A DNA stretch of 64,000 bases from IMG/VR virus record IMGVR_UViG_3300030376_006203, positions 64,001-128,000 of that record; one strand, 5' to 3'. Shown here piece after piece: positions 23,654 to 50,949 of this stretch. Every line of letters starts with the position of its first letter. Within the stretch, counting starts at the first letter, position 1. The position numbers and the translations under genes are program-made. This DNA comes from a virus. Taxonomy: Duplodnaviria > Caudoviricetes. A model generated the notes under the pieces. It saw only the letters and a program-made list of their open reading frames with translations. It made no database searches and had not been told where the DNA came from.

Positions 23654-23683
23654 AAAAAAAAAGGCGACCGAAGCCGCCTTTTT
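23654..23683. terminator. intrinsic terminator, possibly bidirectional
   Basis: A9-GGCG(A)C-CGAA-G(C)CGCC-T5 hairpin flanked by A and T runs. Confidence 0.8.
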
Positions 23684-23705
23684 AATCTAGTTAAAAACTA
23701 TACAA

Positions 23706-23969
23706 TTATAATTGTACACCTTTTGCTAATGCTTTGTATCCAAGACCTACTACCATTCTAGGTGCTTTACCTGTTCTGTATACTTTAACACCAGTTCTTT
23801 TGTTAGTGTTTAAGAACACAGGTAAACCTTTGAATCTTAATGCTTGAATTACTGCACCTGGGTTACCAGCACCAAATCTATTTTTAATAGCATTTGATGT
23901 TAATGCTTCACCGTTTAATAAAGCATTTTCTACTCTTTTTTGTATAGTCATAGTTTTAGTTTTAGCCAT
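23706..23969 (-). CDS. small helix-turn-helix DNA-binding protein
   Basis: ALLNGEALT...RFGAGNPGAVIQALR.KG..V.LN...YR.G pattern; start uncertain (23969 or 24053). Confidence 0.6.
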   Translation of the reverse strand: MAKTKTMTIQKRVENALLNGEALTSNAIKNRFGAGNPGAVIQALRFKGLPVFLNTNKRTGVKVYRTGKAPRMVVGLGYKALAKGVQL

Positions 23970-24108
23970 TGAGCTAACTCCTCTTCTGATTTTTGTCTTC
24001 TTCTGGACAGTATTCGTACCAGTCGAAAACATATTTTTTATTATGTCTAACATTAATATTAATATACATTCTTTTAAGGAAATAGTCAATAAGGTAGGTT
24101 TACCAAAA

Positions 24109-24702
24109 TTAGCCAAAAATACTCATGTCACAATCTAACACTGTGGCAACCAAGTGTACTCTGTCTTCTTCACCACCGTTGAAAGCATTATGGTACTTGG
24201 TATTGTCGGTAATCCATACACCACCATCTGCAGGCATATGATGAACTTCAGTATCGATACACATACGAGCACCAAAATTTGTAACAATTGGTATGTGGAG
24301 TCTAGGTTCTGGATCTCTATGCCAACTCAAAGTTGTTCTTGGCAGTTTCCAAAGCAACCTAATCCTACCAAGTTTATACTTTTTGGTAAGTGCTTCGTAC
24401 ATCTCTTTGAAATATGTGTCTTTGAATAGCGAAACAAATTCTGAATATTGTGCTTCGTCTATCACTTCTTCTCTTTGAACTTCTTGATAAGTGCTGTCTG
24501 GTTTAGTCCAGTACAGTCCTCTTACATTACCACCTGTGATTGAATTTGGATCATTTGGTATTTGTGTAAGGCAGATAGCATTTATATCTCTTTCACCTAA
24601 CGGCGACTGTCTTGCTACTCTTGAATCAACTTCTGCTAATGCTGACTGCATTTTGGCAACATCGAATTTTAATGTTGGATCTCTGTAAAATCCTTTTGGC
24701 AT
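24109..24702 (-). CDS. aspartyl/asparaginyl beta-hydroxylase-like 2OG oxygenase
   Basis: GRIRL, LSWHRD (HxD), RLHIPIVTN, H.AFNGG..DRVHLV. Confidence 0.8.
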   Translation of the reverse strand: MPKGFYRDPTLKFDVAKMQSALAEVDSRVARQSPLGERDINAICLTQIPNDPNSITGGNVRGLYWTKPDSTYQEVQREEVIDEAQYSEFVSLFKDTYFKEMYEALTKKYKLGRIRLLWKLPRTTLSWHRDPEPRLHIPIVTNFGARMCIDTEVHHMPADGGVWITDNTKYHNAFNGGEEDRVHLVATVLDCDMSIFG

Positions 24703-31283: not shown

Positions 31284-31727
31284 TTACTTAACTTCAATAG
31301 TTCTTGCTTTTTTACCTTCTGGAATTATACGTTCCATAGATATTTTCAATAAACCATCTTTAAGTTCTGCTCCCTTTACTTCTACATCATCAGCAATAGT
31401 AAATGATTTTGAAAACCATCTCTTGCTAATGCCTCTGTGAAGCATACCGTCCACGTCATTATCTTTGGCTTTTTCCTTAGATTTGACAGTCAACATATTG
31501 TCTTTGTATTCTACATCTATGTCGTCTTTTGAAAAACCTGCAAGTGCAAGTTCCACGTCATAAGTGTATTCACCAGTCTTCACTATGTTGTATGGTGGGA
31601 AGTTTGTAGCAACCATAGTATTGAAATTGTGATCATCAATCATTCTTTCAAAATGATCGAACACATTGTCGAATCCTACTGTTACTGGTCTTAATCGATT
31701 GAATATAGATAGTGCTTTATTTGTCAT
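31284..31727 (-). CDS. small heat-shock protein Hsp20 (IbpA-like)
   Basis: FPPYNI, ELALAGF, LHRGISKR.F and GAELKDGLL.I. Confidence 0.93.
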   Translation of the reverse strand: MTNKALSIFNRLRPVTVGFDNVFDHFERMIDDHNFNTMVATNFPPYNIVKTGEYTYDVELALAGFSKDDIDVEYKDNMLTVKSKEKAKDNDVDGMLHRGISKRWFSKSFTIADDVEVKGAELKDGLLKISMERIIPEGKKARTIEVK

Positions 31728-32576: not shown

Positions 32577-33221
32577 TTATTCTGTCAATGGAGGGAAACC
32601 ATTTAATTTTGCCAGTTCGTCATTGTCTTTTGTCATAGCAATGGAAGTATTGAAACTCATTGATATTCTACTGCTGTCAGATAGATTTCCTTCAACAGAG
32701 TGTTTGACCCAACTTGGAAATATTAATATACCTCCTGTCATTGGTTTGTACGTTGCTCTAACGGCACTTATATGATTACGTTTTGGCATCACTCTAGGCA
32801 AAAAGAATTCAGCATTGTCTTCTCGTTCAAAATGTATATTACCCATGTTCTCTTCTGGTATGTCAATGTAGTACACACCGCTTAAGATACTGTCTCTGTG
32901 ATCGTGAGGATGATTGTAATCGCCTTTGCCGTTGATGTTCCACCAGTAATCACTTATTTGTAAATCCATTAATCCTGCCATTTTTGTACATTCATTTATG
33001 GATCTTTGAATTGCTATTATAAATTTCTCTACTGCTATTGGTCTTTGATCTAATATTTCAAATGACTTGCTTTGCCATCCGCCATAGTTTGATGCCACTT
33101 TCCCTTGTTCATCTTGTGCTTTTAATTTAACCACATACTCTTTTAATTCTGCGTTGTTCACTTGTTTAAGTTCGTCGTTCCATATCACTGTTGGAAACCA
33201 TAGGTCGGCTTTCATAGGCAT
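32577..33221 (-). CDS. 2OG-Fe(II) oxygenase (TIGR02466-like)
   Basis: SNYGGWQS, HDH..SILSGVYY, FPSWVKH and RISMSFN. Confidence 0.85.
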   Translation of the reverse strand: MPMKADLWFPTVIWNDELKQVNNAELKEYVVKLKAQDEQGKVASNYGGWQSKSFEILDQRPIAVEKFIIAIQRSINECTKMAGLMDLQISDYWWNINGKGDYNHPHDHRDSILSGVYYIDIPEENMGNIHFEREDNAEFFLPRVMPKRNHISAVRATYKPMTGGILIFPSWVKHSVEGNLSDSSRISMSFNTSIAMTKDNDELAKLNGFPPLTE

Positions 33222-33619: not shown

Positions 33620-33727
33620 ACAAATAATTATGCTATTATTCGTACAGTTTCTTCCAATGTGATTGTTCTGATTGTTCTTCGTTTTGGTTGTATGAATCAG
33701 GATACACAACCTCAGTCAAATTTGGTT

Positions 33728-35389
33728 TTAGTCTTCCTGATGTTCCTTTTTCACCTGTTGATTGCGTTCTCTCATTATGTATGATAGAGTCTTTTTTTTT
33801 GGATCAGCGTCTTTATCTTCTAAATCATATTTGACTTCGTCCTCATAGGACCCGTCTGGTTCTTTTTTCTCTTCTTTTGAAACTTCTTTTTCTGCTTCTT
33901 CAATCATTTTGTTCCACTGCTCTAACGGCATTGGTGGTACTGGTTCTTTTGGTACTCTACCGCCCAATGTCAATCCTGCACCAGTTAAGCCAGGTCTAAC
34001 TGTTTCTGCTGGTTCGATGTTTTCTAATGTTGTTTTAATATCTTCTTCTAGTTCTTTGTAATCAACTGCTTCTTCTTCCTCTTTGGCTTTACGAGCAACT
34101 TCTTCTAATGCTTTCTTTTCGTCTTCTTCTCTTTGTTTGAATTTTTCTAATTGTTCTTCTGCTTCACGTTCTTTTTGTTCTTGTTCAAAACCTTCCATTA
34201 GCATTTCGTGAGTTGTTTTTTCTTTGCTAGGAGTGGTTGTCACTGGTTTCTTTTCAGCAATATCAGACAATTTAATTGGTTTAGATTTTGCTTGTACTTC
34301 TTTTTGTTGTTCAACTATCTTGGTTAGACTCTGACCTCCAGTAGGCTTAGGCTCAACTGGCTTTACAGGCGCTGGTGGTATTGAGGGTGCTGGTGGAGTC
34401 TTAGGTGCTGTTGGTTCCTCACCATGCTTGTCTATGTATCTCCAACGGAATGTGTACTGCGAAGCAATCAACAATAATACTGCTAATGGATCAAATACAA
34501 ATATAATAGTAATAATCACCCATCTTACTGCTTCTTCTAATAAATTTCTGTCTGCTTCTTCACCATACACAAATTCAGCAATATATCTAATAGGACCAAC
34601 TTCTGATTCCAATTTCATCAGTTGTGATTTTAAAGGTTCTTGTTCTAAAATTAATGTTTCAATTCTTCCTTGAGCATCGAATATGTTCTTTTCAATTGTT
34701 TTAATTTCAACTGTATTCGCATTCAGTTGGTTATTGATTTGTGCTCTTAATTTATTAATGTTTTCTTGTGCTTGAGTGATTTGTGCGTTGATACGATCTC
34801 TTTCAGGACGTTGTTCTTCCCTTAATTTAAGTCCTTGTTTGACTCTACCAGTTCCACCAAATCCTTTGTTACGTGATGTGAATGCTTCTACATCAGCATC
34901 TAACACTTCTAGACGTTTATAAGCATCATCTATCTTCTTTTGTTCTATAGCGATGTCTTGATTAAATCTATCATTAGTGCCCGTGCTTTGCCCTGTAAGA
35001 CGCACTAATACATCCTTTTGACGTATAATATAGCCTTCTTCTGCTTTTACTTTGTTGTCTATGATTTCAATTCTTTGTGTGACTGTGTCTGAAGATAAAT
35101 TTTGATCCACGTGTGCTTTGGAAAGAAATCCAAAGATACCCATTGATGTAATCAACATCAATACTACCACTGCTATTGAGAGATAAGTTTTAAGCCACCA
35201 TGCGGCCCTTTTCCAGTTCTTATGAAGCCATACTGCGGTAACAAGTTTACCAACTTCTAAGGCAGTTCCCATAATGATTATAGGCACAGCCGCCGCGGCA
35301 AATATTGCCACAAGTCCTGCCACTGAATAATAGATTGCTACACCTGATATTGTAATGGCTGTTAAAAATGTAATAAGTCCAAATAACAT
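33728..35389 (-). CDS. membrane-anchored coiled-coil protein conserved in large phages; possible -1 frameshifted C-terminus ending at 33636
   Basis: N-terminal TMs (YYSVAGL, LEVGKLV, TSMGIFGFLSKAH), coiled coil, EVGPIRYIAE, IFVFDPLAV and an acidic tail. Confidence 0.75.
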   Translation of the reverse strand: MLFGLITFLTAITISGVAIYYSVAGLVAIFAAAAVPIIIMGTALEVGKLVTAVWLHKNWKRAAWWLKTYLSIAVVVLMLITSMGIFGFLSKAHVDQNLSSDTVTQRIEIIDNKVKAEEGYIIRQKDVLVRLTGQSTGTNDRFNQDIAIEQKKIDDAYKRLEVLDADVEAFTSRNKGFGGTGRVKQGLKLREEQRPERDRINAQITQAQENINKLRAQINNQLNANTVEIKTIEKNIFDAQGRIETLILEQEPLKSQLMKLESEVGPIRYIAEFVYGEEADRNLLEEAVRWVIITIIFVFDPLAVLLLIASQYTFRWRYIDKHGEEPTAPKTPPAPSIPPAPVKPVEPKPTGGQSLTKIVEQQKEVQAKSKPIKLSDIAEKKPVTTTPSKEKTTHEMLMEGFEQEQKEREAEEQLEKFKQREEDEKKALEEVARKAKEEEEAVDYKELEEDIKTTLENIEPAETVRPGLTGAGLTLGGRVPKEPVPPMPLEQWNKMIEEAEKEVSKEEKKEPDGSYEDEVKYDLEDKDADPKKKTLSYIMRERNQQVKKEHQED

Positions 35390-35424
35390 ACTTTACTCTT
35401 TTCGTATGCTATATTTACCTTAAA

Positions 35425-35856
35425 TTACCTAATAAATTGCCATCCTTGATACGCAACATCCTTACAGGCAGTTTCCTTAAAATCTCTTGCTTTACCCTTT
35501 TTTTGTATTTGAGTAAACACAACTCTACAATAACCACTGCCGTGCGGATAACTTGCTACAATTTTAACAAATCCGTGAGTGTCTTCTTTCATGTTGTGCC
35601 ATGCAACCACTTTGCCTTCCTCTAGACTGTTGAGTGCGAAAAACACTGCTTGATCCTGTTTCTTCATATCTTCTTTGGATAACTTGCCCATATTATTACG
35701 AACAAAGTTATACCATACCTCAACACCTGTACCTGCGTGTGTGTAGTTGTGGCTTACACTTTTCTGACTAGATAAACTGTTGGTTGTTTTTGTAGGTGTC
35801 CCACAGGCAGTCAATAAAAGACTACTTAATAGGATTAACCATTTCCCAACTGCCAT
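35425..35856 (-). CDS. lipoprotein, 17-kDa surface antigen (RT0821/Lpp0805)-like
   Basis: LTAC lipobox; ALN....G..V.W.N, YCR and ETAC...W. Confidence 0.7.
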   Translation of the reverse strand: MAVGKWLILLSSLLLTACGTPTKTTNSLSSQKSVSHNYTHAGTGVEVWYNFVRNNMGKLSKEDMKKQDQAVFFALNSLEEGKVVAWHNMKEDTHGFVKIVASYPHGSGYCRVVFTQIQKKGKARDFKETACKDVAYQGWQFIR

Positions 35857-39107: not shown

Positions 39108-39187
39108 AGTAGACTCCTTTACAACAATATTTAGATTGTTATAGTACAAAGTTTAATACAAAGATAAGTTATAAGATGTGTTAATGC

Positions 39188-39512
39188 GTGTGGGAGCCGA
39201 AACTCCCACACCTGACTACTTCTGTTGCCCGGCTAGTCTTCTCCGCCAAGTGGCCGGTTATTAAGCGGCAACCAATTCCGCATCAGCAAATATGCTGACT
39301 GGAACTGTCACTTCTGGTTTAAATGCGTTTGCATTTGTAAATGATCCTTTACAGAGATCAACTGGTAAACTCCATGTGCTTTTATGCTCCGGTCGAACCT
39401 ATATCACCCCCTCGAAATAAACCAGACTATTTCAAATGAGCGAATTTGGTGGAGGTGGTCGGTACTGCCCCGACGTCCCAAAAGTGTATTACACACACTT
39501 CAACGCCTACAG
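39188..39512 (-). ncRNA. ssrA: circularly permuted two-piece tmRNA
   Basis: Acceptor piece ends GTCGGGGCAGTACCGAC-CACCTCC-ACCA at 39447. A 35-nt spacer follows, then the coding piece starts GGGGGTGATATAGGTTCGAC at 39411. The acceptor stem has G3:U70. Tag ORF 39332-39261 reads ANAFKPEVTVPVSIFADAELVAA*. 3' hairpin at 39189-39211. Outer ends are approximate. Confidence 0.9.
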
Positions 39513-39540
39513 TGTATTTAAACAGATTTTATATTAAATG

Positions 39541-39738
39541 TCAAGACTTGATTGGAGACCATCTACCATCAGCACTTCTAACTTTGTCAGAGTGTTTAAC
39601 TTCAATGGTAAACGTCTTAACGTCTTTGAATTCCTTACCATGTGCGAAAGTAAACTCATGACCATTGTCAGTTTTACTTTTCCAATAGTGTTGGAAATCA
39701 TCTATTACAATCTTATTTTTTTGTCTTTTAATTGCCAT
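39541..39738 (-). CDS. hypothetical protein
   Basis: Coding strand, with a TTGACA promoter upstream. Confidence 0.55.
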   Translation of the reverse strand: MAIKRQKNKIVIDDFQHYWKSKTDNGHEFTFAHGKEFKDVKTFTIEVKHSDKVRSADGRWSPIKS

Positions 39739-49435: not shown

Positions 49436-49735
49436 TTATGAACGTTTTTTGGTTGCTCTCTTTGCCATTGTTTTTAGGCTGGAAGAACGATCACCTTTCT
49501 TGGTAGGCATATCTGGAGATTCAGCATCTGTGTCTAGTGTAATGCCTGATTGGTCAAATGATTTGATCATTTTTTTGATTGCTGAATTTCTATTGTACAC
49601 ACTTTTGAAACTGTCTGGAGTTACTGCGAAGCCTCCGACGTTGGACAAAATTTTGTTCAACGCATCAAAACTTAAAAATGCTTTTTGATTTTGAGAATCA
49701 GCACTGCTGATTAAATTTCTCAACACACGAATCAA
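49436..49735 (-). CDS. hypothetical protein, probably the -1 frameshift extension of the upstream gene
   Basis: Only a TTG start without SD; the frame is open back through the A9G run at 49765-49774. Confidence 0.55.
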   Translation of the reverse strand: MIRVLRNLISSADSQNQKAFLSFDALNKILSNVGGFAVTPDSFKSVYNRNSAIKKMIKSFDQSGITLDTDAESPDMPTKKGDRSSSLKTMAKRATKKRS

Positions 49736-49758
49736 GTCCGTGTCAGAGGCTTCAGAAA

Positions 49759-50949
49759 TTAAGCCTTTTTTTTTGAAAGTGTTTCTGCTAGTCTTCTAGA
49801 CAAATGTATGAATGATTCTCTCTTGCTTCTGTCTGCTGGTTCTTCACCGCCTGTTGCTGGTTCACTTGCTGAGAAGTCGTCTGCCTGATCTGGCATATCT
49901 GCATCATCATCTGTTGTTGGTTCCATTGCTGGTTCTTCAACGTCGCTGTCCGCACCAATTGTATCTGGTGCTTGTTCGCCTGTCAGTACGGCTACGCCGC
50001 CTGTTAATGCTTCTCTTGTTGCTTCTAGTGAAGTGTATAAAGATTCTAAACTAGGCTTCACTGCGTTTGTGAATTGTTCTGATTGCTCAACTCCCATTTC
50101 GTCTCTAATAGCATCTGCTAATTCTAACATTGATTCACTCTGCATAGATGCTGTGTCTTCCATCCAGCCTGTGATTTTATCAACCATGTCTTTAGCCGCC
50201 ATTACTAATTGAGCAGATTCTTCTGCGCCTTCTTTAACTTCTTTCTTTTTGTCTTTGATTGCTTTTTTCATTGGCTCTTTTTTATCGCCATCTTTGTCCA
50301 TATCTAAAAAGTCTGGTTTTGCTTTTTCTGTCATTGATTTTTGTAATAAGTCTTCTGCGTCTTGAAGTGTAAATTCTTTATCGCCTACTTTAAACTTATC
50401 TCCTTTTTTCATGCCTGCCGCTTTGGCTTTTTGTACTGCTTGAGCAAATGCGTTGCCTTCCATTGCTTCTGGTTCATATTCTGGTTCTTTCATTGAACCA
50501 TCATCTTCGAATTCTTTTTCAAGTCTTTCAAGTGCTCTTTTGATTACTTCTGAATCTTCTTTGCCTGCTCTTGATTTGATGTCAGCGGCAACGGCTTCTT
50601 TGTTCATTTTTAATGCTTCTTTTTCAGCATCAAAATAATCGCCTATCATTTCTTCTGCCGCTTGGTCTACTTTTTTGAAATAACCTTCTTTTGCTACTTG
50701 TCTATCTTGTATTGCTGATGTGATTACATCTAGGAACATTTTTTGCTTGTGATAGTCTTCGTTGTGGCTTAAACCATCAAATGATTCAGTTTGTTCAATA
50801 TCGCTTATCTTGTTGATAATGCTTGATTGAGCACTTTCTAACTGCTCATCTGTGAATTGATCTAATTTAATTGAAGAGCCAAACACTTTTGCCAGTCTAT
50901 CATTCAACTGTTCTGTTGTTGCTTGGTATCTAAATTGCTCTATCTTCAT
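49759..50949 (-). CDS. acidic prohead core/scaffold-like protein
   Basis: E/D/K-rich, KPDFLDMDKDGD motif, AQLVMAAKDMVD, several xxE-type putative cleavage motifs. Confidence 0.55.
   Translation of the reverse strand: MKIEQFRYQATTEQLNDRLAKVFGSSIKLDQFTDEQLESAQSSIINKISDIEQTESFDGLSHNEDYHKQKMFLDVITSAIQDRQVAKEGYFKKVDQAAEEMIGDYFDAEKEALKMNKEAVAADIKSRAGKEDSEVIKRALERLEKEFEDDGSMKEPEYEPEAMEGNAFAQAVQKAKAAGMKKGDKFKVGDKEFTLQDAEDLLQKSMTEKAKPDFLDMDKDGDKKEPMKKAIKDKKKEVKEGAEESAQLVMAAKDMVDKITGWMEDTASMQSESMLELADAIRDEMGVEQSEQFTNAVKPSLESLYTSLEATREALTGGVAVLTGEQAPDTIGADSDVEEPAMEPTTDDDADMPDQADDFSASEPATGGEEPADRSKRESFIHLSRRLAETLSKKKA

Follow-up and report, generated by a model that had tools for sequence, protein, structure and literature searches.

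The window analysed here is a stretch of 64,000 nucleotides, corresponding to bases 64001-128000 of a 148,056-bp phage genome (35.7% GC). On its minus strand, the gene of a 553-aa membrane protein contains, in frame and close to its end, the sequence CCA AAA AAA AAG, in which a run of nine A's (A9) is followed by G (Table 1). Beyond the run the 0 frame continues for 20 codons, here termed the S-tail, and the -1 frame for 51 codons, the L-tail. The preliminary description of this DNA had located the run within the 553-aa ORF, had given these two lengths together with a TAA TAG end to the -1 frame, and had noted that the -1 frame fills an otherwise empty gap of about 100 nt ahead of the next gene; the coordinates bear out all three statements, the next gene starting 17 nt past the first -1-frame stop codon. 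The first ~18 codons of the L-tail form a variable linker overlapping the S-tail, followed by a conserved block, and the S-tail has a conserved motif of its own, T-Y-[IM]-x-[KR]-[DE]...Q-[IV]-x-K. No ATG occurs inside the L-tail, and no conserved alternative start was found in the window or in the relatives, so that the -1 segment should be reachable by a shift only. Annotation pipelines call the short ORF only, so that about 100 nt behind it look empty, and a conserved domain of ~110 aa in relatives goes wholly unannotated.

Table 1. Features of the putative shift site, its surroundings and the other in-frame A9G sites (window positions unless marked as genome positions).
Feature	Position	Strand	Remarks
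Shift site (candidate)	33791..33802	-	CC 33802-33801, A9 33800-33792, G 33791
0-frame ORF, predicted short isoform, 553 aa	33728..35389	-	
Conserved motif E-Q-W-N-K-M-I-E-E-A-E	33890..33922	-	~30 aa upstream of the run; would be common to both isoforms
S-tail, 20 codons of the 0 frame after the run	33731..33790	-	followed by TAA 33730-33728
L-tail, 51 codons of the -1 frame from G 33791	33639..33791	-	would be read only after the shift
L-tail conserved block, G-R-[IL]-K-P-[ND]-L-T ... Y-x-Q-N-E-E-Q ... W-K-K	33639..33737	-	
Double stop of the -1 frame	33633..33638	-	TAA 33638-33636, TAG 33635-33633
Next gene, 132 aa	33221..33619	-	ATG 33619; without family match; syntenic in relatives
Second A9G site	49765..49774	-	TCA AAA AAA AAG GCT TAA, end of a 396-aa acidic ORF
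Third in-frame A9G	genome 34543-34551	-	TCA AAA AAA AAG; outside the window (L163 744-752)

At the N-terminus of the 553-aa protein are three TM helices, followed by ~190 aa that form a coiled-coil hairpin; a fourth TM helix spans aa 290-312, and the C-terminal region is of low complexity and rich in P, E and K. Its AF2 model (pLDDT 75) is all-helical, with a TM bundle and a long coiled-coil hairpin, and across the family TM helices 1-3, the hairpin, an E-V-G-P-I..Y-I-A motif and TM4 are conserved, with 36 invariant columns. Pelagibacter phage Mosig EXVC030M, a T4-like myovirus, carries the nearest named relative of the gene. The product, Mosig_00157 (QOI69118.1, hypothetical), has a homologous N-terminal TM and coiled-coil domain with 43% identity over residues 1-321, but at 326 aa it has a different C-terminus, without the A run, the S-tail or the L-tail. 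The window's protein is a member of this virus-only, Mosig_00157-like family of TM/coiled-coil hairpin proteins. Neither the membrane protein nor the ~110-aa extension seen in relatives could be assigned to a family by searches of Pfam, PHROGs, PDB profiles and a protein atlas, which gave no more than a sub-threshold Tetraspanin match, and fold searches with the membrane protein gave generic coiled-coil matches only. The extension is modelled by AF2 as a small helical domain (pLDDT ~60). By the positive-inside rule, the hairpin probably faces the periplasm, and the C-terminal region, with it the two tails, would lie on the cytoplasmic side.

The phage is an uncultured, marine, T4-like one. A TAAATA-type motif, GTAAATAT, lies at 35405-35425 (minus strand), ~30 nt upstream of the membrane-protein start; it resembles a T4-type late promoter core and hints at late transcription of the gene. 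The upstream neighbours show no homology to the glucosaminidase adjacent to the Mosig gene. Downstream, the minus-strand segment 31284-33221 encodes a 2OG-Fe(II) oxygenase (32577..33221) and an Hsp20 protein (31284..31727), both typical auxiliary genes of marine T4-like phages. A phage tmRNA with the tag peptide ADAELVAA is found at 39170-39542 (minus strand), and six tRNAs are encoded near the genome end, tRNA-Lys not among them.

We scanned viral contigs and obtained 78 relatives of the membrane-protein gene, about 55 of which, representing 43 distinct ORFs, share the layout of the window (type I). The run is positioned 17-32 codons ahead of the 0-frame stop and consists of nine A's in 38 distinct ORFs and of ten (A10) in five, never of seven or eight, while the -1 frame is open and holds an invariant Y.QN.EQ....W in relatives down to ~35% identity. 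Within the window's marine clade the L-tail ends shortly past this motif; a deeper clade (~35-45% protein identity) has a -1 tail extended to ~110 aa with further conserved positions. The first A of the run occupies codon position 3, 1 or 2, depending on the lineage. The base following it is G (nearly universal) or C, and the codon preceding it encodes P, S, A, L or Q with the final A always kept. Elsewhere in the same Lys-rich ORFs there are 46 runs of six A's, 13 of seven, none of eight and one of nine, Lys codons are AAA in only 67% of cases and four-fold third positions are A in only 41%; against this mutational and synonymous background the run is conserved among orthologues. The single A9 elsewhere, which is the sole other run of at least eight A's in the 43 distinct ORFs, is found at ~4132 in L012, L013 and L018, ~110 codons upstream in the same membrane-protein gene.

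We also applied a pattern search able to match runs of eight to eleven A's to JGI, Tara and ENA assemblies. It yielded 33 further metagenome contigs, all of which (33/33) have a run of nine or ten A's, either as A9G or as A10 created by an upstream C-to-A change that leaves the frames unchanged; a frame-fusing A10G or A8G variant occurred in none of these 33 independent contigs. The preliminary description had been concerned that the run length might be a sequencing artefact and that the -1 peptide might not be conserved. The former is excluded by the recurrence of the same length in independent JGI, Tara and ENA assemblies, and as to the latter, YxQNEEQ..W is kept in the ~55 viral and 33 metagenome contigs with substitutions of the coding type. 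Among cultured phages, the homologues in Mosig and in the Flavobacterium immuto, RAS14, SCTP-2 and RsoM2USA phages have neither the A run nor the S-tail or L-tail, and a tblastn search with the -1 domains of this site and of the second A9G site against a cultured-phage collection gave no match. Literature searches returned no report of the gene family or the site.

The distribution of substitutions shows how the two frames are constrained. Past the 0-frame stop (33 codons), variable sites fall on codon positions 1, 2 and 3 of the -1 frame as 14, 6 and 20, and pN/pS is 0.27 in this frame vs 0.67 and 4.0 in the other two. Where the tails overlap, the 0-frame S-tail has pN/pS values of 0.07 (the window's sub-clade), 0.0 and 0.50 in three sets. 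For the -1 frame of this stretch the ratio is 1.04 in the deep set, and the two close sets lack synonymous changes altogether. Judged from these substitution patterns, purifying selection acts on the S-tail in the 0 frame and on the L-tail in the -1 frame. The reversal of constraint between the overlap and the post-stop zone indicates a short product with its own conserved C-terminal peptide and a long product in which a free linker would be followed by the conserved motif. The earlier reading of the -1 frame as an alternative C-terminus for the 553-aa membrane protein is thereby supported, the -1 tail being both conserved and coding.

Taken as a single sequence, the window makes a weak case, a -1 frame open for at least 51 codons being met at ~5% of positions near gene ends, and it is the comparative evidence that is decisive. 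Runs of at least eight A's are depleted (11 in the window vs ~30 expected), the whole genome has five A9/T9 runs and none longer, and no over-representation of the 9-mer was found. An in-frame A_AAA_AAG, of which the first inspection by eye had noticed no other example, occurs 23 times in the 148-kb genome when stop-to-stop ORFs of at least 100 codons are scanned. Twenty of these lie in runs of six or seven A's, where the -1 frames are 1-26 codons long; the three in-frame A9 sites have -1 frames of 1, 51 and 109 codons.

Two other layouts are evident among the relatives. In type II (L019, L021, L024 and L025; L052, L053 and L076) the run is A10 and the upstream ORF is in phase with the L-tail, while in type III (L056, L060, L064-L066 and L078) there is no run and an S-like and the L motif share one frame. 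An in-frame L-tail is found in at least three lineages, the block being in frame in L019, L021, L025, L052, L053 and L056 among others, and in a tree of the N-terminal domain, where type I makes up most of a clade of 71 rows, the in-frame forms are nested within it. The S-tail of type II phages lies in the +1 frame, closed by a stop, and still appears constrained: differences fall on third positions of the S frame in 6/6 cases between L052 and L053 and in 5/6 within the L019/L024/L025 group, counts that are based on few sequence pairs. By this comparison type II phages seem still to make both forms, and the constraint on an S-tail in the +1 frame means that a shift in the opposite direction would be needed. 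The A10 in-frame lineages have distinct flanks, A10 being followed by T, and are old enough for divergence. The two-isoform arrangement is nevertheless dispensable, as the L056 group is without the run. The reciprocal A9/A10 arrangement speaks, on comparative grounds, for slippage that works either way, and the evolutionary signature is unusually clear, with two constrained tails whose default frame has been swapped between lineages.

We are highly confident that the A9 run is a deeply conserved recoding site from which two isoforms are made. Of the original proposal of a recoding device at this position, the conserved device stands, but its determinant looks like the A9 run and not the A_AAA_AAG heptamer. 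We infer that the shift takes place during transcription, and on comparative grounds transcriptional slippage is, with moderate confidence, the most likely mechanism, ahead of -1 ribosomal frameshifting. On nine A's or T's, slippage of bacterial RNA polymerase is efficient in vivo, and the RNA-DNA hybrid of the enzyme is 9-10 bp long (PMC5009743), and selection against homopolymer runs becomes visible at a length of nine (PMC1088944). Under the slippage model, the unslipped mRNA would give the 553-aa short form ending in the S-tail, whereas in a fraction of transcripts the polymerase would realign on the nine A:T pairs, just enough of them to fill the hybrid, and add one A. Ordinary translation of the resulting A10 mRNA would then produce P-K-K-K-D, the variable linker and the conserved L-tail motif, that is, a long form of 584 aa here and, in many relatives, one ending in the small helical domain of ~110 aa. 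In A10 lineages the polymerase would instead drop one A or add two in order to reach the S-tail frame. Five observations favour slippage: (i) the length of the run is conserved at never less than nine, though a ribosomal heptamer needs only 7 nt, (ii) the codon phase of the run varies among lineages, (iii) both directions of shift appear to be used, the second of which a -1 ribosomal shift cannot supply, (iv) there is no conserved RNA structure or SD-like element, and (v) the long -1 frames of the genome go with A9 runs and not with heptamers. As to the fourth, MFE z-scores across 29 lineages are ~0 for both the 60 nt downstream and the 50 nt upstream, and no conserved SD-like element was found near the site.

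A_AAA_AAG is the best-known bacterial -1 slippery heptamer, and a tandem tRNA-Lys slip of the dnaX type on an unaltered A9 mRNA is the most serious alternative, although we consider it rather unlikely as the main route. It would produce the same P-K-K-K-D junction as slippage, so that protein sequencing cannot discriminate between the two. The heptamer is correctly phased in the window and in most relatives, A_AAA_AAA is present in every phase variant of the A9 run, the G after the run is nearly universal, the -1 direction fits the majority arrangement, and a phage without its own tRNA-Lys depends on the host set for decoding. Against this, seven nucleotides would suffice for the ribosome, and yet none of the 43 distinct ORFs has a run shorter than nine, and the codon preceding the run keeps its final A while the amino acid varies; the conserved G can also be put down simply to the need for Lys without a longer run. 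A conserved stem-loop, pseudoknot or SD-like stimulator is absent, the 20 other in-frame A_AAA_AAG heptamers are without an extended -1 frame, and a -1 move cannot reach the constrained +1-frame S-tail of the A10 lineages. Unstimulated ribosomal shifting may occur at a low level, and with the heptamer correctly phased in most lineages, ribosomal frameshifting may contribute to the long form or even dominate.

Three further explanations fare considerably worse. Sliding of the ribosome on the homopolymeric A stretch, with exit in either frame, would depend on run length and be bidirectional, properties compatible with A9 and A10 lineages alike; however, the Escherichia coli system is robust at A11 and gives little product at A9 or A10 (PMC4363877), and the runs here are held at nine or ten, which makes sliding very improbable. 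We find it just as hard to credit phase variation at the DNA level, in which replication slippage would toggle subpopulations between A9 (short) and A10 (long). Such runs are hypermutable and lineages with A10 and an in-frame long tail do exist, but a simple frame-fusing A10G was seen in 0/55 viral and 0/33 metagenome contigs (consensus assemblies could hide minor variants), and the A10 in-frame lineages differ in their flanks and are of an age sufficient for divergence. A non-functional origin, whether through an error of sequencing or assembly at the homopolymer, decay of the gene end or a separate small ORF occupying the gap, deserves scarcely any credence: an open -1 frame of 51 codons is a ~5% event in a single sequence, but the run length is identical across assemblies of different projects, each frame is under purifying selection in its own segment, the -1 segment is without a conserved start codon, and a true A10 would leave the S-tail untranslated when this tail is in fact conserved.

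The arrangement can be placed alongside several known systems. It resembles E. coli dnaX in having an in-frame A_AAA_AAG and two isoforms differing at the C-terminus. The -1 ribosomal frameshift of E. coli dnaX depends on two stimulators, an SD-like element upstream and a stem-loop downstream, whereas the phage site has no conserved stimulator and its run is held at no fewer than nine A's. In phage lambda, the tail assembly chaperone pair G/GT is made in a set product ratio by ribosomal frameshifting on diverse heptamers; the site described here is likewise in a phage gene with a short and a -1-extended product and an arrangement conserved by position, but it is a fixed A9 run, and the membrane protein concerned is not encoded in the tail module. 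In Thermus thermophilus dnaX, the tau and gamma forms arise through transcriptional slippage on a 9-nt A/T run (PMC5009743, PMC1088944), and here the likeness includes a 9-nt homopolymer late in the coding sequence, two C-terminal forms and no need for RNA structure. The differences are that heterogeneous mRNAs are documented for T. thermophilus dnaX while the phage site is known from its DNA sequence, and that in T. thermophilus the long form is the 0-frame product, truncated by slippage, whereas in the phage A9 lineages slippage would extend the protein; the A10 lineages have a polarity like that of T. thermophilus dnaX. The gene families are unrelated. Transcriptional frameshifting on A/T runs is also described for Shigella spa13 and mxiE and for Citrobacter rodentium tssM (PMC5009743, PMC4256274), where homopolymer slippage similarly leads to a short and a C-terminally extended form of a secretion or membrane-complex protein; TssM, an inner-membrane protein, occurs in two lengths, as is proposed for the phage protein. 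These are bacterial chromosomal or plasmid genes, while the site in the phage family is conserved over a very deep divergence. The mechanism is thus of a known kind, and the gene family is new and virus-only.

With this locus, homopolymer recoding in phages gains a well-supported example from a widespread gene family. On a more speculative reading, which we hold to be unlikely, slippage of the host RNA polymerase, with both insertion and deletion of A's, would set the isoform ratios, and a change from A9 to A10 would flip the default isoform with both tails kept. The ratio might then respond to NTP pools or to a phage-modified polymerase, and so provide a timing signal. As a working idea, we suggest that the two tails are probably alternative docking motifs, and as candidates of this kind they could reveal the role of the membrane protein.

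The claim that the device recurs in this phage lineage also holds, since the site at 49765 is equally conserved. There, 109 codons of the -1 frame (49765-49439, within the region 49436-49790) continue the 396-aa ORF, and A9 or A10 with an open -1 frame and a conserved domain of ~115 aa is found in 65/67 related viral loci. In L153, a locus without the run, the ~115-aa domain seems to have its own ATG. The product of this second gene is scaffold-like. The third in-frame A9G lies in a gene for a 270-aa Cys-rich modular protein, where the -1 frame stops after one codon and a -1 shift would truncate the product. Only the close relatives L165 and L167 retain the run, and in other relatives the downstream module is exchanged precisely at this junction. 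That A9 runs are a general, selected expression device of uncultured aquatic T4-like phages, used in several unrelated genes per genome, here those of the membrane protein and the scaffold-like protein, belongs to the same tentative reading and is likewise held to be unlikely.

Two A9 runs of the genome are placed differently. The only one on the plus strand of the window (23654-23684) lies between genes, ahead of a GC-rich hairpin and T5. On the minus strand it reads as a hairpin and T9, an intrinsic terminator after the gene 23706..24116, so that it has the look of a terminator working in both directions and not of a recoding site. The fifth run, at genome 138216-138224 (plus strand) and outside the window, reads ACC AAA AAA AAA TTA and falls in the reading frame of a small plus-strand ORF, close to its N-terminus.
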